The notes beneath the pieces are model-generated. The model was not told where the DNA came from, searched no databases, and saw only the letters and a list, made by a program, of their open reading frames with translations. DNA of 64,000 nucleotides from positions 96,001 to 160,000 of the forward strand of contig JAXSPP010000002.1 of the NCBI GenBank assembly GCA_037927135.1, given 5' to 3'. The position numbers and the translations under genes are program-made. Positions 22,388-60,139 of this stretch are shown piece after piece (the stretch's first letter is position 1; each line of letters opens with the position of its first letter). The stretch comes from Candidatus Pampinifervens sinense (GTDB lineage Bacteria; Aquificota; Aquificia; Aquificales; Aquificaceae).

Positions 22388-23965
22388 ATGCCCTACTATA
22401 TATTTGTCACCGGTGGTGTGCTATCCTCTTTGGGAAAAGGTGTGGCCTCAGCCTCCATAGCCTCCCTCCTTGAAGAACAAGGTCTGAAAGTAAACATACA
22501 AAAGCTGGACCCATATCTTAATGTGGACCCTGGCACCATGAGCCCCTACCAGCATGGAGAGGTCTATGTAACAGAGGATGGAGCGGAAACGGACCTTGAC
22601 CTTGGACACTACGAGAGGTTTACAAACAGGTCTATGACAAAGAAGAACAACGTAACGGCTGGTAGGGTCTACTATAACGTGATACAAAGGGAAAGGGAAG
22701 GTGGCTATCTTGGTGCCACAGTGCAGGTCATTCCCCACATAACCGATGAGATAAAAAGGCTCATAAGGGAGGTGGAAGAGGACTGCCATGTGGTCATAGT
22801 GGAGGTGGGAGGAACAGTAGGAGACATAGAAGGCTTGCCCTTTTTGGAGGCTGTGCGCCAGCTTTCCATGGAGGTGGGAAGGGAAAAGGTGCTTTTTGTC
22901 CATATTACCTACGTGCCTTACATAAAGACTGCGGGAGAGCTAAAGACCAAGCCAACCCAACACTCGGTCAAGGAGCTAAGGGCCATAGGCATACAGCCTG
23001 ACATAATCCTCTGCAGGTCTGAGATGGAAATGCCAGAGAGTATAAAGGAAAAGATTGCCCTATTTACCAACGTCAAAAAGTCCGCCGTCATATCAGCACC
23101 AGATGTGGAGTTCATATACGAGGTTCCTTTGGTCTTCAAAAGGCAAGGACTTGACAGGCTCATAGCCCAACACTTTGGCTTTGAATACAAGGAGGTAAAA
23201 AGCAAGTGGGAGGACATAGTTCAAACCTTGAGGTCTGCAGAAAGGGAGGTAAAGATAGCCCTTGTGGGCAAGTATGTGTCTTTGAAGGATTCTTATAAGA
23301 GCGTGGTTGAGGCGCTTATACATGGTGGCATAGCCAACAGGGCAAGGGTGAGGATAATTTGGGTCAATTCAGAGGATTACGATGAGAAGGTTTTGGAAGA
23401 AGCCCATGGCATACTGGTACCCGGTGGCTTTGGAGAGAGAGGTATAAGTGGAAAGATAAAGGCCTTGAGCTATGGAAGAAAGTCAAAAAAGCCTACCTTT
23501 GGCATATGCTTGGGTATGCAACTTATGTGTGTAGAGTTTGCCAGAAATGTACTTGGGCTAAAAGAGGCCAACTCTACCGAGTTTGACCCCTTTACACCCC
23601 ACCCTGTTATAGACCTAATGGAGGAGCAAAAGAACATAAAAAAGCTTGGTGGCACCATGAGGCTTGGGTCTTACCCATGCAAGCTTATAGAGGGCACAAA
23701 GGCAAGAGAAATCTACAAGCAAGAGCTGATATATGAGAGACACAGGCACAGGTATGAATTTAACAACAAATACAGGGAAATCTTTCAAGAGGCTGGCATG
23801 GTCTTTTCTGGCCTTTCACCCGATGGAAGGCTTGTAGAGATAGTGGAACTAAAAGATCATCCTTGGTATATAGGCTGTCAGTTTCATCCAGAGTTCAAAA
23901 GCAAACCCTTTCAACCCCATCCCCTTTTTGTTTCTTTCATCTCCGCCTGCTTACAAGCTCAATGA
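22388..23965 (+). CDS. pyrG: CTP synthase
   Basis: [32 protein letters not shown]. Confidence 0.98.
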
Positions 23966-25082
23966 TCGCTACATCGGGTGGTGAAAAAAGCCTCATGGGA
24001 GGACCTCCTGTGCCTACACCTTTGCTTATATAGATGTAAGATCTTCCAAGCCTATGAAAGCCCCTATCGCTTATAAAAAGCCTTGTTAGAATGAATCTAC
24101 CCACAGGGTAATAGACTCCACCGTGGGTGTGTCCAGAGAGCATAAGGTCAAAGAGCTTTTCGGCTCCTGCTTCTAGCTTTGGCTTGTGCTTCAAGTAGAT
24201 AACAAAGCTTTCCCCTTTTGCCTTTTGAAGAAGTTCCTTGTCCGAAAGCGGGCCTTTACAAGCCCTAAAGAACCTACAGTCATCATCATCTATCCCCACT
24301 AAGCTTATGTTGTAATCCTTAAGATAATACACCTCACCCCTCAAAAGTCTAAAGCCAGCCCTTTTGGTGAAGGCTATGGCTTGGTCTATACCCCTGTAAT
24401 ACTCATGGTTTCCTAAAACGGCATACTTTCCAAGGGGTGGGTCCATCTTAGAGAGGGCATCAGCAAGATAAGCCTTGTTTTGCATGTTTCCATCCACAAG
24501 GTCTCCTGTGGACACAACCATATGGGGCCTCTCCCTTTTATAAACCTCCAGCACAAGCCCTACCTTGTCCATACCCATAAGAGGGCCAAGGTGAAGGTCC
24601 GATATGTGAAGTATTTTTATATGGCCCACATCCTTTGGAAGTTTGACCGTTTCTATAACAAACCTTTCCACCTTTAAGTTAAGGGTTTCATAATAGCTGT
24701 AGGCAGAGAGGCTAAGGGAAAGGAATAAGATAAGGGCTAAGGAAGTCCTTGCAGAGGGTATAGGAAGGGGGTTTATATTGAAAAATCTTTTTGAGATAAA
24801 AACAAAGGCCCTATAAAGGTCAAGGAAAAGGCCAAAAAGGAAAAAGTAAAGAAGAAAGCCCATCCAAAGGAGGCCTATTAAGGCAGTAAGGTGTGCTATG
24901 CTTTGGTCAAGTTTTGCATCCGCATACCTCCAGATAAAGGGGGAGAAAAAGCCCAGTATAAATAAAAAGGCTACGGAAAGCTTTAGGCTTGCACTTTTGA
25001 TAGCAGGCTTTATGATCCTTATGTAAGTATAAAGGTGCATAAGGGCAAAGAAGGATAGAAAGAGTAGAATGAACCATCTCAT
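23937..25082 (-). CDS. Membrane-anchored metallophosphoesterase (YkuE/YaeI-like)
   Basis: N-terminal TMs; SDLH, TGD, GNHE, GHTHGG motifs. Confidence 0.9.
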
Positions 25083-25750
25083 AGGCTTATCTTGTAGCCA
25101 AAGCCCCTCACCGTCTGAATAGCTTTACCTTCCTCACCTAACTTTTCCCTAAGCTTTTTTATATGCACATCCACCGTCCTATCAAAGACATCCCTCTTTA
25201 AGACCTTTTCTATGATGTAATCCCTGCTTACTGGCTTGCCGTAATTCTCAAGAAGGGCTTGAAGGATGAGGAACTCCGTCGGTGTAAGGTCAAGCACCTT
25301 ACTCCCCCTTCTTACCTCCTTCCTTTCAAGGTCTATCTCAAGGCCACCAAGCCTGAATATAGCCTGTCTTTTCTCCTTTCCTGCCCTTCTTAAGACCGCT
25401 TTTACCCTTGCTATAAGCTCCTTAATAGAAAAGGGTTTGGTTATATAATCGTCCGCACCAAGAGAAAAGCCTTTGAGCTTGTCTTGCTCCATATCCCTTG
25501 CTGTTATAAATATAATGGGCACGTATTCTAGCTCAGGGTTGTTTTTTATATGCTGGGCTATCTTAAAACCGTCATAGTCTGGAAGCATCACATCAAGAAG
25601 GATGATGTCTGGGACTTCCAGCTTTAACCTCTCTATGGCACACGTTCCGCGATGACAAACATGAACTTCATACCCCTCCTTTTTAAGATTGTATGCTACA
25701 AGCTCAGCCAAATCCTTATCATCCTCCACCAAAAGCACTTTCAGGCTCAT
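25079..25750 (-). CDS. OmpR/PhoB-family response regulator (PhoB/PhoP-like)
   Basis: VEDD, LLDVMLP, GADDYITKPFS, RTVDVHI, TVRGFGY. Confidence 0.92.
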   Translation of the reverse strand: MSLKVLLVEDDKDLAELVAYNLKKEGYEVHVCHRGTCAIERLKLEVPDIILLDVMLPDYDGFKIAQHIKNNPELEYVPIIFITARDMEQDKLKGFSLGADDYITKPFSIKELIARVKAVLRRAGKEKRQAIFRLGGLEIDLERKEVRRGSKVLDLTPTEFLILQALLENYGKPVSRDYIIEKVLKRDVFDRTVDVHIKKLREKLGEEGKAIQTVRGFGYKISL

Positions 25751-51923: not shown

Positions 51924-51932
51924 ACTTCCCTC

Positions 51933-51953
51933 TGGGGGCCCTGCCCCCATTTT
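51933..51953 (+). terminator. Intrinsic terminator after thiC
   Basis: TGGGGGC-CCT-GCCCCCA followed by TTTT. Confidence 0.7.
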
Positions 51954-52005
51954 AACCAAATCTTAACCAAAGCTTAAAGAAATCTTAACCTTTCCCTCCT
52001 ATCCT
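51951..52005 (+). promoter_or_regulatory. Pho-box-like promoter 1: four 11-bp direct repeats plus -10
   Basis: TTTAACCAAAT/CTTAACCAAAG/CTTAAAGAAAT/CTTAACCTTTC; TATCCT at 52000-52005; ATG 7 nt later. Confidence 0.75.
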
Positions 52006-52012
52006 TATTTCC

Positions 52013-52759
52013 ATGAGCTTGTTCCTTTTGGAGCTTCATGACGTTAGCCCTCACTACAGGAAGGAGTTTTTAAAAGCCCTAGACCTTCTGGAGGAGGTGG
52101 GCATAGAAAAGTTCTCCCTTTTGGTGGTGCCCTACTTTTGGGAGATGGCCCCCTTAGGTGAGGATAAGGATTTTGTCTCATTTATAAAGAGCCTGCCCGC
52201 AGAGGTGGTGCTTCACGGCTATACACACAAGGGAAGAAAAAGGTTTAAGGATCTTCTTTGGACCGATGGGGAGGGAGAGTTTGGGGGGCTTGATCTGATA
52301 AGCACCTATGAAAAGGTATATTTAGCCCTTGAGCTTATGGACTATTTGGGTCTAAAGACAGAGTTCTTTGTCCCTCCCGCATGGATAGGAAATCCTTACC
52401 TTGAGGATGTGCTGTATTCTTTGGGCTTTAGAGCTGTGGCCTACAGATGGTATATAAAGGATCTTGGCACAGAAAAGATTATAAAGTCGCCTGTGCTCAG
52501 CTTTAGCAACAGATACCTTTTCTCTTGGCTGAGCATAAAGCTTTTGCCAGAGCTTGAAAAGCTATACAAAAGGCACAAGATCTTGAGGCTTGCCATACAT
52601 ATGGCAGACCTAAGGGATGAAAGAAAGACACTCCTTTGGAGGGAAATACTTGGAAGGATAAAAGAAAGAAGGAGGTGTGTAAGCTATGGAGAGCTTTTTG
52701 GCAAAGGCGGACCTTCACCTTCATTCAAAGGCCTCCAACCTGCCGGGAGGGTGGTTTAG
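52013..52759 (+). CDS. DUF2334 / polysaccharide deacetylase-like (CE4 fold) protein
   Basis: LHDVSP, LLVVP, VLHGYTH, EGEF, FVPPAW, RLAIH. Confidence 0.8.
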   Translation: MSLFLLELHDVSPHYRKEFLKALDLLEEVGIEKFSLLVVPYFWEMAPLGEDKDFVSFIKSLPAEVVLHGYTHKGRKRFKDLLWTDGEGEFGGLDLISTYEKVYLALELMDYLGLKTEFFVPPAWIGNPYLEDVLYSLGFRAVAYRWYIKDLGTEKIIKSPVLSFSNRYLFSWLSIKLLPELEKLYKRHKILRLAIHMADLRDERKTLLWREILGRIKERRRCVSYGELFGKGGPSPSFKGLQPAGRVV

Positions 52760-54932
52760 TAGGCTAATAGGCTGTCCTGAGAGCTTTACAGAACCCATGG
52801 AGATATACAGAAGGCTAAAGGAAAGGGGCATGAGCTTTATAACCATAACGGACCACAACACCATTGAGGGAGTGCTGGAGATAGCCCACCTTCCCGAGGT
52901 CTTTATAAGCTGTGAATACACGGTGGAGTTTCCAGAGGACAAAAGGAAGGTGCATGTACTTGTCTATGGCCTGAGTGAAAAGGACCACCAAGAGCTTACA
53001 AGATTAAGGGAAAACATCTTTGACTTTGTGAGATACCTAAAAGAGAGAAGGCTTGCCCACTCCCTTGCCCACCCACTATACTCTGTGGAGAGGTCCAAGG
53101 TGGATAAAGACTTTGTAGAAAAGCTTGTTCTACTTTTTGACAACTGGGAGGTGATAAACGGCACAAGGGGGAAGGATGTGAGGCAGATAGAGGAGGCTAT
53201 AGCGAGGGCCTATGATGGATGGGACAAGATTTATAGGTTGGCCGAAAGGCACAGAATAGAGCCTCAAAGGACAAGGGAGAGGATAAGCTTTACCGCCGGG
53301 TCTGACGACCATGGTGGTATAGACATAGGGAGAACATGGACTGCAGTGGAAGGAGCAAAAAGCAAGGAAGAGTTTTTGAGGGGCCTGTGGGAAGGGAGGA
53401 CAAAGGTGGGGACAGAAGACCTTGGAGAACACAGGCTTTTGAACATGATAGGAAGGGTAGGCTATGACTTTCTAAAAGCTAAAAACTACATTCCTTCCGA
53501 GATAAGGCCAATAACGGATTACATCTTTATGCACTCCGATAGTCCTACCATTGGCTTTCTCATAAGGAGTTTTTTGGGTATAAAGGGGGAAAGAAGCCGT
53601 ATGTTAAAGGAGATTTTAAGGGTATTGCCCTCCTTCGCCCTAGAAAGGTTTATAAAGAGCCCCTCACCGCAAACCTTTGGGGAGCTAGGCCTGTCCCTCA
53701 TGGCTCATGGCCTCCCCGCCTTTTTAAAGTATGCCCAAAAAAGAGAAGAAGAGAAGATAAAAGAGCTTGGAAAGGAGTTTGGAATCGCAAAAACAAAGCC
53801 ACCAAAGGTGGCATACATAACAGATACCTACCACCACATAAACGGCGTTGCAAGAAGCGCTAAGCTCATAAGACAGATAGCCATGGAGGAAGACCTACCC
53901 TTTACAGTCCTTGTATCCAGCTCAGACGTAAGGGAAGAAGAGGGCCTCATAAACCTAAGGCCTATGGTGGAGATTCCCACACCCTTCTATGAGGAGCTTA
54001 AGATGGGCCTTCCCAACTTCCTTGACCTTTTGGACCTCTTAGAAAGAGAAGGCTTTACGCAGGTTCATATAGCTACGCCAGGGCCTTTGGGCCTTTTGGG
54101 CCTTTTGGCAGGAAAGCTCTTGGGCCTTAGAATAACCTTTGCCTTCCACACAGACATACCCACCTACGCAAGGACCTATACGGGAGATCCAGACTTGGAG
54201 GAGATCCTCTGGAAGGCCTTTGTGTTTATAGGAAAGATATCCCATAAGTTCTTTGTGCCTTCTGAATACTACAGGAAGGTGTTTGTAAACAGGGGGCTGA
54301 GCTATGGGAAGATTAGCCTCTTTAGGAGGGGTGTGGACACAGACCTCTTCTCACCAGAAAAAAGGGAAGAGGGCTTTTGGGCAAGGAGGCTTGGCATAAA
54401 GAAACATCAAAGGGTCATACTCTATGTGGGGAGGGTTTCAAAGGAAAAGGGCCTGGACACATTTTTGTATGTGGCAAGGTGCTTCCCGGAGGATGTCTTT
54501 GTGATAGTGGGTGATGGCCCATACAGAAGGGAGATAGAGGCCAAAAGGCCAAAAAATGTACATCTTACCGGCTATATGGTGGGTGAAGAGCTTGCAAAGG
54601 CTTATGCCAGCTCCGATGTCTTTCTCTTCCCTTCCGAGACGGAGACCTACGGACAGGTGGTGCTTGAAGCCATGGCAAGCGGTCTTCCTGTTATAGTTAG
54701 CTCTAAAGGTGCTTCCCATGAGCATGTGCAAGAGGGTGTAAACGGCCTTATAGCCACAAGGCCGGAAGAGTATGTGGAAGCTCTATCTTTGCTCCTTTCT
54801 AACGAAAGCCTAAGAAGAAGCATGGCCCAAGAGGCCCTATACAGCGCCAGAAGGCTTGATCTGAGAAAAAGCTATATAGATTACATGCTTGCTATAGCAG
54901 GCCTTGGGAGGCTTGTGTATGAAGCTGGTTGA
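52686..54932 (+). CDS. PHP phosphoesterase domain fused to GT4 glycosyltransferase
   Basis: N-term DLHLHS, ITDHN, AHP, EVING, GSDDH; C-term DTY..INGV, HIATPGPLG, RGVD, VGRVSKEK, FPSETETYGQVVLEAMASG. Confidence 0.88.
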   Translation: MESFLAKADLHLHSKASNLPGGWFSRLIGCPESFTEPMEIYRRLKERGMSFITITDHNTIEGVLEIAHLPEVFISCEYTVEFPEDKRKVHVLVYGLSEKDHQELTRLRENIFDFVRYLKERRLAHSLAHPLYSVERSKVDKDFVEKLVLLFDNWEVINGTRGKDVRQIEEAIARAYDGWDKIYRLAERHRIEPQRTRERISFTAGSDDHGGIDIGRTWTAVEGAKSKEEFLRGLWEGRTKVGTEDLGEHRLLNMIGRVGYDFLKAKNYIPSEIRPITDYIFMHSDSPTIGFLIRSFLGIKGERSRMLKEILRVLPSFALERFIKSPSPQTFGELGLSLMAHGLPAFLKYAQKREEEKIKELGKEFGIAKTKPPKVAYITDTYHHINGVARSAKLIRQIAMEEDLPFTVLVSSSDVREEEGLINLRPMVEIPTPFYEELKMGLPNFLDLLDLLEREGFTQVHIATPGPLGLLGLLAGKLLGLRITFAFHTDIPTYARTYTGDPDLEEILWKAFVFIGKISHKFFVPSEYYRKVFVNRGLSYGKISLFRRGVDTDLFSPEKREEGFWARRLGIKKHQRVILYVGRVSKEKGLDTFLYVARCFPEDVFVIVGDGPYRREIEAKRPKNVHLTGYMVGEELAKAYASSDVFLFPSETETYGQVVLEAMASGLPVIVSSKGASHEHVQEGVNGLIATRPEEYVEALSLLLSNESLRRSMAQEALYSARRLDLRKSYIDYMLAIAGLGRLVYEAG

Positions 54933-56043
54933 TATAACACCCTATTTTCATAGCAAAAGCGGTGGCATAAAAAGGTACCTTTTGGAAAAGGCCAAGTTTT
55001 TACGGGATAAGGACATAGAACATGTGATCATAATACCTGGCAAGAAAAGGAGGGAATACTACATAGAGTCCTCCAAAGTATATGAACTTCCTTCCTTCCC
55101 CCTTCCCCTCACAGGAGGCTATAGGTTCTTTTCCTCTTTGAGCGAGATAAAAGAGATACTCAAAGAGGAAGGACCAGATGTGGTGGAGCTCGGCGGCACT
55201 TACCAGCCCATTCCCTTCTTAAAGTCGGAAGGCTACCTTCTTAGCGTCTTTTACCACTCGGATGTAAGGACAGATCTTTCCCTTCTTCCTGCGCCAGAAG
55301 GCCTAAAGAGGGCCTTTCTAGAGCATGTCATAAAGAGGAAGCTATCAAAGGCAGACCTCATCATCACCCCGTCAAAAAGACAAGAAGAATTCTTAAGAAG
55401 CTTTGGGCTAGAGAAGGTCTTTACAATAAACTTGGGTGTGGACACAAACATCTTTAACCCAAACAAAAGGGACCCTTACTTTGAAAAGGCCCTTGGCATA
55501 AAAGAAGACAAGTTCAAAATAGTCTATGTGGGAAGACTCTCTCCAGACAAGAATATAGGCCTTTTGCTTGAAGTTTTCCAACATCTTGACCCCACTCTCT
55601 TCCATCTTGTAGTGGTAGGAGACGGACCCCTAAGAAAGAGGGTAGAAAGGCTCTCTAAAAAGCTTCCAAACCTCACCTACTTAGGTTATATAAGCGATGA
55701 GGAGGAGCTTGCCAAGATTTATGCCAGCTGTGATATATTCCTTAGCGCCTCTTTTGGAGAGACCTACGGTCTTTCCTTCCTTGAGGCACAAGCCTGCGGA
55801 TGTCTCCTTGTGGCTTTTGATATGGACCTTGAGACACAACCCTTTAAGGAGTTTTTGGCAAAGGAAAAAAGCCCAGAGGCTCTTTACGATGCCATTGTAA
55901 GGGCCTGCCAATCTTTGAACCTTAGCCTCAAAGAAAGGATAAGATCTTACATAGCGGAAAACTTCTCTTGGAAGGCTACCTTTGAAAGGCTCCTTAGCCT
56001 GTATGAGACTGCCCTTAACCAAATCTTAACAATTTCTACTTAA
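54919..56043 (+). CDS. GT4 glycosyltransferase
   Basis: SGGIKRY, YHSD, LGVD, VGRLSPDKN, ETYGLSFLEAQACG. Confidence 0.88.
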   Translation: MKLVDITPYFHSKSGGIKRYLLEKAKFLRDKDIEHVIIIPGKKRREYYIESSKVYELPSFPLPLTGGYRFFSSLSEIKEILKEEGPDVVELGGTYQPIPFLKSEGYLLSVFYHSDVRTDLSLLPAPEGLKRAFLEHVIKRKLSKADLIITPSKRQEEFLRSFGLEKVFTINLGVDTNIFNPNKRDPYFEKALGIKEDKFKIVYVGRLSPDKNIGLLLEVFQHLDPTLFHLVVVGDGPLRKRVERLSKKLPNLTYLGYISDEEELAKIYASCDIFLSASFGETYGLSFLEAQACGCLLVAFDMDLETQPFKEFLAKEKSPEALYDAIVRACQSLNLSLKERIRSYIAENFSWKATFERLLSLYETALNQILTIST

Positions 56044-56046
56044 ACT
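56014..56046 (+). promoter_or_regulatory. Pho-box-like promoter 2 (inside the 3' end of the GT4 gene)
   Basis: CTTAACCAAAT/CTTAACAATTT; TAAACT at 56041-56046; ATG 7 nt later. Confidence 0.7.
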
Positions 56047-56053
56047 TTTTTCT

Positions 56054-56260
56054 ATGAGGGAGAGGATTGATCTGCTTTTGGAGAAGATTGAGAGGGAGAA
56101 AAGGTCCTACAGCAAGCTTCTCAAAAAGGGTGAAAAGGTAAGAAAAAGGGAGAGGGACACCTTTTTGACGGAAAAGGACAGGACCATCCTTATAGAATCC
56201 TTTGTGGTCGGTGGCCTTATAGAAAACCTGATAACAAAGGCTATAAACAAGCTCTTCTAA
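56054..56260 (+). CDS. Small hypothetical protein (68 aa)
   Basis: ORF directly downstream of promoter 2; charged helix and amphipathic C-terminus. Confidence 0.6.
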   Translation: MRERIDLLLEKIEREKRSYSKLLKKGEKVRKRERDTFLTEKDRTILIESFVVGGLIENLITKAINKLF

Positions 56261-56610
56261 GCCAACCTCTCAATCAGGCTCAAAACCCTCTTATAGTCTC
56301 CGTATACCCTCACCCTACCCTCAAAGATGTATCTAAGCACCCTTGAAGGCTTTTCAACGATCCTCATAAGGTCTCTATAGCTCAAAATTATTCTGTCTTC
56401 CACCTGCGGTGGCTTTGGAGTGTGGCTTATACCCTCTTGGCTTATAAGGAAGTGCTCCATCTGTCCGTTGGGAAGCTCTACCGTTAGAAGTATGGGGCTC
56501 TTTAACTCTCTTAGGGCTTGTCCATGCTCTTCTTGTAGGTGGTGTGCCAACAGCTTTAGCTCTCTAAGGTAGTCTTCAGTATTCGCTTTCAATGCGTATG
56601 ATCCTCTCAT
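56257..56610 (-). CDS. SCP2-like (sterol-carrier fold) protein
   Basis: DRIILSYRDLMRIVE...RYIFEGRVRVYGD resembles the SCP2 C-terminal GxxKxxGD pattern. Confidence 0.6.
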   Translation of the reverse strand: MRGSYALKANTEDYLRELKLLAHHLQEEHGQALRELKSPILLTVELPNGQMEHFLISQEGISHTPKPPQVEDRIILSYRDLMRIVEKPSRVLRYIFEGRVRVYGDYKRVLSLIERLA

Positions 56611-56833
56611 CCCTTGATAGCCTCCCTATTATGTCCTCAAGCACCTCAAAGGCCTTCTCCTCTGTGGAATAGATGCCAAGGACGGCGGGAAGGAGAGGCT
56701 GGCTCATGTAGGCCACCACCTTATAAACCAGCCTCTTTTTCCCTTCCACTTCTATCTTTGCCTCTTCCACCGAAAGGGATATAAGATGAAGGGCATTAAG
56801 ATACCTTCCGCTCCTTGTCCTCAAAAAGTTCAT
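56576..56833 (-). CDS. Hypothetical protein in fez-like operon
   Basis: 85 aa, GGAGG SD, ATGA overlap with upstream gene. Confidence 0.65.
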   Translation of the reverse strand: MNFLRTRSGRYLNALHLISLSVEEAKIEVEGKKRLVYKVVAYMSQPLLPAVLGIYSTEEKAFEVLEDIIGRLSRDERIIRIESEY

Positions 56834-57102
56834 GCCTCTTCCTTCTTTTCCTCTTCCTTTAGGGCCTTTTTGGCACCCTCTACTGCACCTTCCACCGAGT
56901 ATCTGATTACCCTCAGGGCCTTCTCTCCTATCTCCGCCGTGGTCTTTACTATCTCCTTGCTAACCTCCATTACCTTGGATAGGGCTTCTGCTGGCAATTC
57001 TTTTAGGCTTTTCTCCTCGGCCATTCCAAGCTTTTTCTTTAGCTCTTCCAGCTCTGCCTTGATCTTTTCAAGCTCTTGGGCCAAATCCTTCTTTTCTTCC
57101 AT
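56830..57102 (-). CDS. Coiled-coil/amphipathic helical protein in fez-like operon
   Basis: GGAGGTG SD; E/K-rich helices, VEGAVEGAKKAL. Confidence 0.7.
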   Translation of the reverse strand: MEEKKDLAQELEKIKAELEELKKKLGMAEEKSLKELPAEALSKVMEVSKEIVKTTAEIGEKALRVIRYSVEGAVEGAKKALKEEEKKEEA

Positions 57103-57107
57103 GGCTT

Positions 57108-59183
57108 TCACCTCCCTTTGATTGAATATAATCCTAAAAGCAAAGTAGCACCGTTGTTTATAAGGGTTGAGACCGATGGGCCAATAAGCCCAAGGGCAGA
57201 ACCCAAAAGGCCAGCAGTGTTTATAAGGTTGTTCAGTCTATAGACTCTTTTAAGCCTTTCCATAGTCTCTTGGGCTATATCCACCATATCCAGTAGGTGC
57301 CAAAGGCTATCTCCTATAACAATGTCTGCCACCTCTATGGCTATGTCTGTGCCACTCCTTAGAGATATACCCACGTCTGCAGAGGTCAAAGCGGGAGAAT
57401 CGTTCACACCATCACCCACAAAGGCCACAACGCTGCCTTGACTTTTAAGCTTCTCCACCACCTTTGCCTTCTCCGCAGGAAAGACCCTTGCATAAAACTC
57501 CTCTATGCCCAGCTCCCTTGCAATGTAGCTTGCAATGCCTTCGTTGTCTCCAGTGCAAAGCACCACCCTTTTACCCCTCCTTTTTAGCTCAGCCACCACA
57601 TCCTTTGCCTCTTCTCTAAGAGGGTCCCTAAAGGTAAGAAGGCCCACTATCCTTTTGTCTTTTACAAGGTATAGAACGGACTTTGCCTCCGAGTGGAACT
57701 TATCTACAAGGCCTTTTATCTCTTGGCTTATCCTTATCCTTTTGCTCTGCATAAAGCGAGTGCTTCCAAGCATAAACTTCTGTCCCTCAATTTCTCCCTC
57801 AATTCCAAGGCCTATGTGGTATTTGGAGTTTTCCCTTGGCAAAAGTCTGAGGCCCCTTTCCTCCGCCAGCCTAACTATGGCCCTTGCCACAGGGTGGGTG
57901 ATCCTTTGCTCCAAAGAGGCAGAGTAAAGAAGCACCTACTCTTCCGACATTTCTAATCCTACCACATCCTCCACCTTGGGATGGCCCACCGTTAGGGTAC
58001 CCGTCTTGTCCATCACAAAGGTATCCACCTTTGAAAGGATTTCTAGCTTTCCACCGCTCTTTATGAGTATGCCATGGGTTGAGGCCTTGGCTATTCCAGA
58101 CAGCACGTTTAGAGGGGTGGTAAGGTGTATGCCCGTGTGGTAGTCTATTATAAGGGTGGAGGTAAGCCTTCCTATGTTTCCGCTAAGTGTGTAAGACAAG
58201 AGGCCCACTCCTATGGTGGGCAATACCATCCTGTTTGCCCACTCTTCCGCCATCCTTTGCACCCTTATGGGTTCTTTTATGCTCTCTTCTACAATCTTTG
58301 CGATCTTTGCCACAACCGTGTTTTCTCCCACCTCTTCCACTCTTACATAGAGCTTTCCATCCTCCACAAAGGTGCCCGCATAGACCTTGTCTCCCACCTT
58401 TTTATGCACAGGATTTGACTCTCCCGTGAGGCTTGCCTGATTTACCAAGGCATCGCCCTCTTCCACCACGCCGTCCACCGGTATCTTTTCACCCGCATAC
58501 ACTACAATAAGCTCTCCCTTTTTTAGGTCCAGGGCCTTCACCCTTATGGCTTGGCCGTTGCCCACCACAAGCCATGCCATATCCTCCTTGTAAGAGAAAA
58601 GCCTTTCAATCTTTTCATAGGCCTTTCTTTCTACCCTTTCGGAAAGGTAGTCTCCAAGAGCAAGCAAGAAGACCATAGTATGAGCAGAGAGGGGACTTCC
58701 CGTAAGGCTTGCCAACACTATGGCAGAAGAGTCAAGGAAATGGACATCAAGCCTTCTTTCTCTTAGAGAACTTAAAGCCTTGTCAAAGATGGGCTTGGAA
58801 AGAAGTAAGGTCATGCCGGCCAGCAATGGGTTTGGAAGGATGCTTCTAAAAAGGTAAGGGATAAAGCCAAAAGAGGTAAGCACAAGCCACCTTAAAGCTC
58901 CCTTTTCTTCCTTTTGCACCTTTGGCTTTTCCCTTGAGAGGTCCTCAAGGAACATATCCCTTGGCGTGTTTTCTATGTGGTTTAAAAACTCTATTAGGTC
59001 AAAGCTGTCTGGGTCATACTCAAGGGTGAGCCTTCCCGATGCTTTGGAGTATTTTACCCTCTTTACTCCGCCAAACCTTGAAAAGTAGGACCTTAGAGTT
59101 TCTTCCGGATGGTGAAGGTATTGGAAAAGGTAAGAAGTTAGCCTTATCCTTCCCGGCGATAGCCTCTCTATCTTGTAGCTCAT
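57108..59183 (-). pseudogene. FezB-like P1B-type ATPase interrupted by a single in-frame TAG (57936-57938)
   Basis: Two abutting same-frame ORFs; PGRIRL, LTGES, DYHTGIHL, DKTGTLT | THP, TGDN, GDGVND, NNGAT. Confidence 0.85.
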
Positions 59184-59386
59184 TGTCCTTCCGTCTTTTC
59201 TTCCTTTAGCTTTAGCTCAAGGGCCTTTACCATGGCTTCAATCTCTCTTTGAGTCTCCTCAAGCCTCTTCCTTTCCCTTGCCCTGTCAAGCATATAAAGG
59301 GCAAGCACTCCAAGGCCAAAGCCAAGGGCAAAGCTAAAAGGACCAGAACATACCATCCTACCAAGTATGGACCCTATTTGGTTCAT
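59180..59386 (-). CDS. Small GxxxG membrane protein with coiled coil (FezA-like)
   Basis: FALGFGLGVLAL TM; AGGAGGTG SD; ATGA overlap with the ATPase. Confidence 0.7.
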   Translation of the reverse strand: MNQIGSILGRMVCSGPFSFALGFGLGVLALYMLDRARERKRLEETQREIEAMVKALELKLKEEKTEGQ

Positions 59387-59398
59387 CCTTTCACCTCC

Positions 59399-59713
59399 TT
59401 ACAGTCTTTCCTTTATTCTTTGCAATATCTCCTGCTGTTTTTGAAGTATCTCCAGCTTTTTCTCCACCTCAAGCCTGTAGAGGTGCTTGGCCTCTGAAAC
59501 CACATCCTCCCAAAACTCCTTACCCTCCTCCAGATTTCCTGTGAGCCACTGCTGGAAGGCTATAACTTCCTTGGTAGCAGATACAAGTAGTGGCCTTGCA
59601 TCCTTCATTACCTTGCTGAGGACCACAAGGCCCGCAAGGGCACCAAAGCCGTATAGCATCATGTTGGTGGAGAGGCATCCACCTATGGTAGTAGGAAGGC
59701 TAAAATTTAGCAT
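59399..59713 (-). CDS. DUF5132/DUF1490(PacL)-like GxxxG membrane protein
   Basis: FGALAGL TM, ARPLLV, EDVVSEAK; AGGAGGT SD. Confidence 0.7.
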   Translation of the reverse strand: MLNFSLPTTIGGCLSTNMMLYGFGALAGLVVLSKVMKDARPLLVSATKEVIAFQQWLTGNLEEGKEFWEDVVSEAKHLYRLEVEKKLEILQKQQEILQRIKERL

Positions 59714-59726
59714 CACCTTTACCTCC

Positions 59727-60098
59727 TTATAGCTTGGTTTTCAAATAAGGGACCAAAAGCATACTGCAAAGAGCAAAGGAGATAAGGCCCGCACCCCAGC
59801 CAAGGAAGGCAAGGCTCACAACAAGCTTTACTCCAGGATGTTTTAGAAGATGCTGAAGGTAGAAGTGTATATCTTCCTTCTCCAGCCTTTGAACCGGTTT
59901 GTACTTTATGTTCTCAACAAGGTAGTGGAAAAAGCTTCCTTCCTTGAACCTTACAAGGAGGGTCCTCGTGTTCTCTTTGTATTCTACCCCCAAAACCCCC
60001 TCCATCCCGCCCATGCCACGCAAGAAAAGGTCCTTCTCCTCCACGCTTGAAAAATAGAGCCTCGCTTCACCCTTTCTCAGAGATACATACTCAATCAT
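59727..60098 (-). CDS. HMA2-like domain protein with C-terminal GxxxG TM (FezC-like)
   Basis: GEARL...EGVLGVEYKENTRTLLVRF parallels the ATPase N-domain GRIRL...GVKRVKYSKASGRLTLEYD; GWGAG in TM. Confidence 0.65.
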   Translation of the reverse strand: MIEYVSLRKGEARLYFSSVEEKDLFLRGMGGMEGVLGVEYKENTRTLLVRFKEGSFFHYLVENIKYKPVQRLEKEDIHFYLQHLLKHPGVKLVVSLAFLGWGAGLISFALCSMLLVPYLKTKL

Positions 60099-60106
60099 CG
60101 GCAAAC

Positions 60107-60139
60107 ATTTTAGCAAGCTATTGTTAAGATTTGGTTAAG
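60107..60139 (-). promoter_or_regulatory. Pho-box-like promoter 3 for the fez-like operon
   Basis: Minus strand CTTAACCAAAT/CTTAACAATAG then TGc-TAAAAT (60112-60107); ATG 8 nt later. Confidence 0.75.

Follow-up and report, generated by a model that had tools for sequence, protein, structure and literature searches.

A predicted phosphate-starvation regulon in Candidatus Pampinifervens sinense joins glycosyltransferase genes, a small gene of no known family and an atypical P1B-type ATPase operon

The stretch of DNA analysed here (the window) comprises 64,000 nt of Candidatus Pampinifervens sinense, a bacterium of the family Aquificaceae in the phylum Aquificota. Between positions 51951 and 60139 it carries three transcription units, a glycosyltransferase operon, a single small gene and, on the opposite strand, a seven-gene operon encoding a P1B-type ATPase with putative membrane partners. 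Each of them is preceded by tandem 11-bp repeats. The studied genome (1.55 Mb) is labelled G000 and its contigs C#, related genomes G### and their loci L###; f2, f3 and f5 denote families and g12 a genus. The features of the locus and the candidate regulator are the following:

25079..25750, minus strand: orphan response regulator of the OmpR family, likely PhoB (NCBIfam, synteny in relatives)
51951..51994, plus strand: Pho box 1, four 11-bp units with the core CTTAAC
52000..52005, plus strand: predicted -10 hexamer TATCCT of site 1, ATG at 52013
52013..52759, plus strand: DUF2334 deacetylase-like protein, 248 aa
52686..54932, plus strand: PHP-family metallohydrolase fused to a family 4 glycosyltransferase (GT4), 748 aa, candidate for a phosphate-removing step and a glycolipid synthase
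54919..56043, plus strand: second GT4, 374 aa
56014..56035, plus strand: Pho box 2, two units
56054..56260, plus strand: conserved 68-aa protein of no known family with a basic helix and a hydrophobic C-terminal helix, own Pho promoter
56257..56610, minus strand: protein of the SCP2 lipid-binding fold, 117 aa
56576..56833, minus strand: highly conserved 85-aa protein, predicted PH-like fold
56830..57102, minus strand: helical 90-aa protein rich in Lys, Glu and Ala
57108..59183, minus strand: P1B-type ATPase interrupted by an in-frame TAG; DYHTG in transmembrane helix (TM) 4, NNGAT in TM6, HMA_2-like domain at the N-terminus
57936..57938, minus strand: the in-frame TAG, with a GTG directly after it
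59180..59386, minus strand: membrane protein of 68 aa, laid out like FezA, with GxxxG and a coiled tail
59399..59716, minus strand: 105-aa membrane protein, weakly DUF5132/DUF6110-like, scaffold candidate of the PacL/FezA type
59727..60098, minus strand: 123-aa protein with an HMA-like N-terminal region (by eye) and C-terminal hydrophobic helices, FezC-like layout, no significant Pfam match
60107..60112, minus strand: predicted -10 hexamer TAAAAT of site 3
60118..60139, minus strand: Pho box 3, two units, heading the seven-gene pump operon

A preliminary description of this locus had reported the repeats, -10 hexamers and start codons of the three sites, and re-reading of the sequence confirmed all of their coordinates. 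Site 1 is composed of the units TTTAACCAAAT CTTAACCAAAG CTTAAAGAAAT CTTAACCTTTC in this order, site 2 of CTTAACCAAAT CTTAACAATTT (predicted -10 TAAACT at 56041, ATG at 56054), and site 3, read from 60139 to 60118, of CTTAACCAAAT CTTAACAATAG (ATG at 60098). At 3 out of 3 sites the -10 hexamer begins 16 nt past the start of the last repeat, the ATG follows 7, 7 and 8 nt after the hexamer at sites 1, 2 and 3, and the reported lack of an evident -35 agrees with a sigma-70 scan, which gave no -35/-10 pair at any of them. The 11-bp period of the repeat also held; the repeat sequence as first given did not, since exact CTTAACCAAAT occurs in only 2 of the 8 units and the common core is CTTAAC. The tandem CTTAAC-N5-CTTAAC (at most one mismatch) matched 17 times genome-wide and 5 times in the window, there only at the three loci, as had been stated. 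Single 11-mers were not enriched (22 matches with up to two mismatches versus 31.4 +/- 5.8 expected), and only the tandem is significant. In relatives the spacing at site 1 is kept, and at most loci the ATG lies about 7-10 nt past the -10. Because the ATG follows so soon after the predicted -10, the mRNAs of the three promoters are probably leaderless. Pho box 2 overlaps the last codons of the second GT4 gene here; in relatives, for example G024, it lies downstream of that gene. Abutting box 1, a GC-rich inverted repeat (gggggc...gccccc, 51930-51950) downstream of thiC probably terminates the thiC transcript.

A half-site profile was trained on the 8 window units and compared with five null genomes generated by an order-5 Markov model. 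It returned 16 overlapping scan windows of at least 20 bits in G000 versus none in each null genome, and 10 windows in which a score of at least 14 bits was combined with TAnnnT at +16, again versus none in each. Nine loci outside the window scored at least 17 bits, of which four are canonical phosphate genes that also show TAnnnT at the 16-nt offset from the last repeat:

C3:157109: Pho box before pstSCAB, PstS-type binding domain confirmed
C1:178569: Pho box before phoU, PhoU confirmed via the 93%-identical G024 ortholog
C9:49208: Pho box of four repeats before phoX, PhoX confirmed in G000
C1:315620: Pho box of four repeats before a TonB receptor-exbBD-tonB-phoD operon, PhoD confirmed in G000

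Hence the three sites alone retrieved the promoters expected of the Pho regulon that had been proposed for them. By this context, the three repeats are Pho boxes. A fifth outside box heads an operon of V4R-like, MglB-like, small GTPase, HEAT-like and EAL-GGDEF genes that runs into pstS (C3:152692-157138). Of the remaining four, one lies before a DUF302 gene, one before a glgA-like gene, and C4:102884 and C1:22414 are doubtful. Among relatives, pstS carries the box in three further genera, and so does the gene of a phosphate-selective porin. The strict pattern of box plus -10 occurred in 37 out of 61 genomes, including 24 out of 24 within the genus; the reversed control gave 2.

Conservation of the promoters was scored with a second profile, trained on four non-window sites (threshold at least 15 bits). 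Since the genomes are related and not independent, the ortholog tallies are counts rather than statistical tests. The box was present at 28 out of 30 DUF2334 starts (best 30 of 35 loci), at 16 out of 25 scored small-gene starts, with one more locus at a contig edge, and at 34 out of 38 pump-operon loci in 7 out of 9 genera, a tally that leaves out G012 and G021 (contig ends) as well as G086 and G089. The predicted conservation at orthologous loci was therefore found. None of 9 panC starts and neither of 2 thiC starts carried a box, and the background, with true sites counted in, was 15 out of 2366 tiles of G000 and 24 out of 388 tiles of AT-rich loci. Relatives differ in what lies upstream of the pump operon (panC, a CZB gene, a thrB-like gene, a pst cluster, a phosphoesterase), and the box stays. 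One island of G024 unites the GTPase-EAL and pst operons with the pump operon, the glycosyltransferase operon and the small gene. That the three units belong to one regulon is supported by these data. In several genus members the pump operon is preceded by a stand-alone CZB zinc-binding protein (L005:157-534; L136; L137), whose gene in G011 carries its own Pho box.

The response regulator encoded at 25079-25750 had been suggested to act on the boxes, and the comparisons point the same way. Among four OmpR-type genes in G000 it is the only one with PhoB models as top NCBIfam matches, although these score 225-230 bits versus cut-offs of 270-296. Its ortholog adjoins a histidine kinase, a box and pstSCAB in G030 and lies close to pstS in G052; a Pho box was found upstream of the ortholog in G050, G052 and G053. 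An ortholog of the G030 kinase, a PhoR-like protein, is encoded in G000 at C4:128200. The protein is thus likely PhoB, as judged from similarity and synteny. The end of its gene is overlapped by a gene for a membrane-anchored calcineurin-like metallophosphoesterase (PF00149, window 23937-25082, minus strand), a neighbour not seen beside the regulator in the loci of eight relatives.

The Synechocystis Pho box is described as CTTAACCT with a 3-bp linker (PMC1906773), and the resemblance of its core to CTTAACC, noted in the preliminary description, stands. The boxes described here share with the cyanobacterial SphR/PhoB box the core, the 11-bp period, the location in the -35 position and the occurrence before pstSCAB and phosphatase genes. 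They differ in their host phylum, in that two repeats are enough at most sites, in the fixed 16-nt offset to the -10, in the apparently leaderless transcripts at three promoters, and in the orphan PhoB gene of G000.

Within the glycosyltransferase operon, the best NCBIfam models point to lipid enzymes. The only match of the DUF2334 protein is the model for N-acetylglucosaminyl-phosphatidylglycerol (GlcNAc-PG) deacetylase (85.9 bits, cut-off 280), the second GT4 is best matched by the GlcNAc-PG synthase model (200 bits, cut-off 480), and the PHP-GT4 fusion by glycosyltransferases of the lipoteichoic acid-anchor or monoglucosyl-diacylglycerol type, well below cut-off. The PHP residues H7, H9, D52, H53, E73, H86, H121, H125, E151, N154, D203, D204 and H205, which include conserved metal ligands, are kept in at least 85% of 120 homologs. 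Genes for a GNAT protein (PF13444) and an acyltransferase (PF01553), which we take to be of the ornithine-lipid type, adjoin one of the two operons, glycosyltransferase or pump, in several relatives: Pfam identified them in G055 and G035, and sequence similarity or visual inspection in G052, G113, G112 and G114. The earlier proposal of glycolipid-type transferases and lipid remodelling is supported by the nature of the best matches and by these neighbours in distant relatives. We consider it probable that the product is a phosphorus-free glycolipid, probably one with an amino sugar.

Two known systems offer parallels. PlcP and Agt, encoded behind Pho boxes, are reported to make monoglycosyl diacylglycerol (MGDG) and glucuronic acid diacylglycerol (GADG) (PMC4796936), and a Desulfovibrio Agt mutant is described as lacking glycolipids in low phosphate (PMC5193443). 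As in PlcP-Agt, a predicted metallo-phosphoesterase activity is here paired with a GT4 in a Pho-boxed operon. In contrast, instead of a separate PlcP the operon encodes a PHP domain joined to the GT4 in one chain, and the second GT4 and the deacetylase are additional. GpgS and GpgD make glucosaminyl-phosphatidylglycerol in Pseudomonas aeruginosa (PMC12713373); that paper mentions neither PhoB nor a Pho box. Among NCBIfam models, theirs match the second GT4 and the DUF2334 protein best, whereas the equivalog cut-offs are missed, gpgF is lacking from the operon, and the acceptor may be a glycolipid or diacylglycerol. Unlike gpgSDF, the operon contains no flippase gene; two other flippase-type genes (PF03706) are present in G000.

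The small gene at 56054..56260 has 148 homologs and occurs in 34 out of 138 genomes of the phylum. No credible Pfam match was obtained for its product, and the ESM Atlas returned no informative cluster for this protein or for the 85-aa PH-like protein.

In the pump operon, the genes follow in the order HMA-like protein with transmembrane helices, DUF5132-like, GxxxG, ATPase, helical, PH-like and SCP2, with a single ATPase per operon in all loci read. The ATPase keeps the DKTGT, TGE, HP and GDGxND motifs. FezB is defined by D[Y/F]SCA and HNxxT (Grant and Komeili, bioRxiv 10.1101/2020.01.10.902569). In contrast, D[YF]HTG is present in 91 and D[YF]SCA in none of the 120 top homologs of this ATPase. 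In a midpoint-rooted FastTree of 167 sequences, in which FezB and other groups were named by motif, the ATPase belongs to a 14-sequence clade (support 0.999) next to DxGTG/NN types and outside the DYSCA/HN and CPC/HN groups. DYHTG instead of D[YF]SCA, NNGxT instead of HNxxT and the separate clade rule out that the ATPase is FezB; this comparison covered the FezB motifs. The second fez ATPase, FezH, is distinguished by a TM motif of its own and by its place beside a FezB. The best fold matches of a model of the intact G015 ATPase (predicted local distance difference test, pLDDT, 86.8) are CopA and ZntA, indicating a P1B fold. Its N-terminus matches HMA_2 (E 0.003) and shows a beta0-like strand and an R-rich GRIRL motif in the model. 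CoBaHMA domains are HMA folds that lack CxxC and have an additional strand bearing a His and a basic patch; the N-terminus here has no CxxC, but it also has no His at the conserved place.

The partner proteins could be assigned to different degrees. PF02036 (SCP2) was matched by 17 out of 17 aligned members of the 117-aa family (best E 1.4e-7), and the SCP2 profile reached only E 0.04 against solved structures. The model of the 85-aa protein (pLDDT 93.7) gave FERM, PTB and PH domains as top VIA matches with middling Z of 5-6, and no Foldseek match at E<=0.001. DUF5132 was matched by 4 out of 26 members of the 105-aa family, at best with E 0.0015 and below cut-off, DUF6110 by 1 out of 26, and DUF1490 by none. 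The GxxxG-type motif reads GFGLG in the 68-aa membrane protein and GFGALAG in the 105-aa one.

The earlier name of a ferrosome-like operon with an SCP2-like protein thus fits the layout and the SCP2 family, whereas the ATPase misses both FezB motifs and lies outside the FezB clade. Like fez clusters, the operon combines a P1B ATPase with an R-rich N-terminus, GxxxG membrane proteins and an HMA-like protein with C-terminal hydrophobic helices. It differs in its motifs and clade, in a Pho box rather than iron control, and in the extra SCP2 and PH-like genes; fez clusters form Fe-P granules. The effluxosomes formed by PacL with CtpC, CtpG or CtpV have a DUF1490 or DUF6110 scaffold; they are similar in the small single-TM scaffold, for which the pump operon has candidates, the pump of a P1B-6-like branch, the Asn in TM5 and N-x-x-T in TM6 (PMC13460109). 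In contrast to them, the pump operon lacks CPC/APC and a His-rich tail, has Asn for the His of H-N-x-[ST], matches DUF5132/DUF6110 only weakly and is under putative phosphate control. In Microcystis, DUF5132 and CoBaHMA genes are described as flanking, and partly co-expressed with, the Ca-carbonate marker gene ccyA and a Ca/H exchanger (preprint). In our preferred reading, the operon studied here encodes a pump that moves an O/N-liganded divalent cation and sits on a membrane scaffold.

A gene of the cation diffusion facilitator (CDF, cation-efflux) family lies within the pump operon in G055 and in four g12 loci. Canonical Zn CDFs have a His in TM2, at whose position the operon CDFs carry Phe or Tyr (DASFM in L102:6828-7673, DAVYM in L105:8498-9358). 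The g12 loci (L104-L105, L132-L134) carry a reduced operon that encodes a DYNTN ATPase, a CDF and a GNAT protein; SCP2, the PH-like protein and the small gene are absent. This operon belongs to a Pho island that also holds TonB receptors and a PF04185 phosphoesterase. Outside Aquificota, FezB and CPC pumps made up most of the results of a metagenome scan. Of five atypical loci examined, L138:6799-10109 shows the order DUF5132-like, HMA-like and DYGTG ATPase, with no phosphate genes nearby as judged by eye.

An in-frame TAG, absent from the preliminary description, splits the ATPase into 415 and 275 aa. Searching with the N-terminal part gave a 426-aa open frame in G000 itself and frames of 692-723 aa in 22 relatives; two others are cut by contig ends. 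Recoding and an assembly slip were rejected, and the TAG is read as a real allele, because relatives have Asp or Glu at this position and the contig of the probable source run is identical over this stretch. An independent run (X2) spans the site and differs at 2 unplaced positions within 5.3 kb. The pump of G000 is probably a recent pseudogene, the break being dated as recent because between the G000 and G015 ATPases 71 codons show synonymous and 21 non-synonymous changes; translation might restart at the adjacent GTG. Among relatives, G084 has a decayed ATPase copy, G016 and G013 have kept the box and lost the operon (G016 retains a stub of the first gene), and no pump copy was found in G008.

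Co-occurrence was counted in 138 phylum genomes of at least 85% completeness, in which the ATPase was present in 39, PHP-GT4 in 55, the small gene in 34, PhoX in 33 and PhoD in 29. PHP-GT4 accompanied the ATPase in 38 out of 39 genomes, the exception being a decayed pump genome, and the small gene occurred with the ATPase in 31 out of 34 and with PHP-GT4 in 34 out of 34 cases. Polyphosphate kinase 1 (PPK1) was detected in 19 out of 138 genomes: in none of 67 of the own family plus G000, none of 8 in f2, 1 out of 39 in f3 and 18 out of 22 in f5. PPK2 was not found in G000.

Taken together, we give an even chance to the full interpretation that a PhoB-like regulator switches on all three units in phosphate starvation, combining a lipid swap with an atypical P1B cation pump on a scaffold. 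Its steps differ in probability. Phospho-PhoB would very probably bind the repeats replacing the -35 and activate leaderless transcripts. The PHP domain would probably strip phosphate from a phospholipid precursor to yield diacylglycerol, to be glycosylated by the fused GT4, and the second GT4 and the DUF2334 protein would add and deacetylate N-acetylglucosamine, by analogy with GpgS/GpgD on phosphatidylglycerol. With somewhat better than even prospects, the ATPase would export an O/N-liganded cation (Ca, Mn, Fe or Mg) from the cytoplasm as anionic lipid and phosphate ligands are lost; such a cation is proposed because Asp, His, Thr and Asn sit at the Ser-Cys-Ala and His positions of FezB. The GxxxG, DUF5132-like, HMA-like, PH-like and SCP2 proteins may anchor the ATPase to the remodelled membrane, and the small protein (56054..56260) may be an accessory of the phosphate-starvation response.

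Several observations weigh against this interpretation. The small-gene box is missed in three near-threshold genus members, in G029 and in all five f3 loci scored, and the pump-operon box is missing in G029, G112 and G135 and weak in G050 (13.8 bits). All lipid-enzyme matches are far under the curated NCBIfam cut-offs, and the substrate of GpgS is a phospholipid, so that the product may still contain phosphorus. The cargo assignment rests on motif chemistry, and the SCP2, PH-like, HMA-like and GxxxG folds would fit lipid handling equally. RNA run X22 had 0 reads and run X20 only contigs of a related strain at a depth of about 5-14 over the locus, providing no evidence of induction. The pump was deleted or broken repeatedly (G000, G084, G016, G013, G008), and 17 genomes have PHP-GT4 without the pump, so the predicted lipid swap can do without it. 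PhoX (31/33) and largely PhoD (24/29) are nested in PHP-GT4 genomes as well; since PhoX nests alike, shared ecology explains the nesting as well as coupling does, and the related genomes are not independent. The earlier view of the units as one functional module is therefore unproven; chiefly the SCP2 protein and the repeated physical linkage suggest a functional coupling.

A bolder conjecture, which we regard as doubtful, is a starvation-induced sister of the ferrosome or lipid-moving machine, in which the Cys-free P1B ATPase with the SCP2, PH-like and GxxxG proteins would build a membrane body banking cation-phosphate or phospholipid in bacteria without polyphosphate kinase, in step with aminoglycolipid conversion, as the Aquificota branch of a wider Pho-controlled HMA/DUF5132/P-ATPase class. 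A ferrosome-like membrane compartment precipitating a cation with phosphate, as a mineral phosphate store that is primed in starvation and filled on resupply in organisms without polyphosphate kinase, seems unlikely. The gene layout parallels fezABC (HMA plus TM, GxxxG, ATPase), the ATPase clade is sister to the FezB/CtpC group in the midpoint-rooted tree, ferrosomes contain ferrous phosphate, and the gene neighbourhood of Microcystis ccyA as well as the PPK1 and PPK2 results in G000 and its family would suit such a store. However, both FezB signatures fail, phosphate locked in mineral would be costly when scarce, and PPK1 is missing order-wide irrespective of the pump, G135 having both. The membrane-bound compartment or ion store of the preliminary description is unsupported.

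We attach still lower probability to an ATPase repurposed to flip or extract phospholipid or the new glycolipid; SCP2 would be its carrier, and the PH-like and HMA-like domains would sense anionic lipids. The constant SCP2 match, the PH-like model, the hypothesised binding of anionic lipids by CoBaHMA domains, the TM4 motif without Cys, the missing flippase gene of the glycosyltransferase operon and the nesting of the pump in PHP-GT4 genomes are consistent with it. Against this stand the two PF03706 genes elsewhere in G000, the CDF cation transporter joining the operon in two genera, the ion pumps among the fold matches, the polar D/H/T/N/N/T set at ion-site positions and the equal nesting of PhoX.

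PhoX and PhoD need metal, and the pump might supply Ca, Fe or Mn to these exported enzymes of the same regulon, which we rate no higher than lipid movement. CtpC, a related pump, reportedly has a Mn-dependent role in protein metallation, and PhoX or PhoD is present in 31 of the 39 pump genomes. In 8 out of 39 neither enzyme was found, however, 15 genomes have an enzyme and no pump, and the SCP2 protein is left unexplained. Binding of the repeat by another OmpR-family regulator, or a signal other than phosphate such as iron or envelope stress, is very improbable, as the three further OmpR-type genes, the sub-cut-off PhoB scores and boxed genes not obviously related to phosphate (DUF302, glgA-like, MglAB-EAL) are opposed by boxes at pstS in four genera and at phoU, phoX, phoD and the phosphate porin, by the regulator orthologs beside pst genes in G030 and G052, and by the lack of a Fur-like site.

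Fur control of the locus found no support from consensus matching, a weak test in which the best site agreed at 10-11 out of 19 positions with the E. coli consensus and 215 background sites reached at least 13. Iron uptake under PhoB control has been described in Synechocystis (PMC11126600).

No Aquificota Pho regulon and no phosphate control of fez-type clusters was found in the literature, in a search outside of which lay subscription journals and bioRxiv supplements. The regulon and the lipid response are of a known kind, and the non-FezB pump module is uncharacterised. Our results define a Pho box and a core regulon for a deep-branching thermophilic phylum. Phosphorus-free lipids made via a fused PHP-GT4, as predicted here for Aquificota, would bear on the reading of hot-spring lipid biomarkers. 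A large uncharacterised P1B branch (DxxTG/NN types, sister to FezB and CtpC) is placed under a known signal. The cargo of such pumps and GxxxG scaffolds thereby becomes testable, as does a response of ferrosome-type clusters to phosphate besides iron; homologs were named for the cultured Hydrogenobacter thermophilus, Sulfurihydrogenibium azorense and Desulfurobacterium atlanticum.

Further boxed genes extend the putative regulon. The GTPase/EAL-GGDEF operon is kept with its Pho box in several genera (L111, L136, L229), which would place GTPase and cyclic di-GMP signalling under phosphate control. A DUF302 gene is boxed in G000 (C3:72151, minus strand) and also in G024 and G007 (L221, L226). 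A glgA-like gene with a GTG start (C2:186304, plus strand) has a three-unit box and a correctly spaced TATAAT, which suggests glycogen synthesis in low phosphate. Finally, a secreted-looking protein of 214-217 aa, assigned to no family, is boxed in G003 and G008 (L222, L224).

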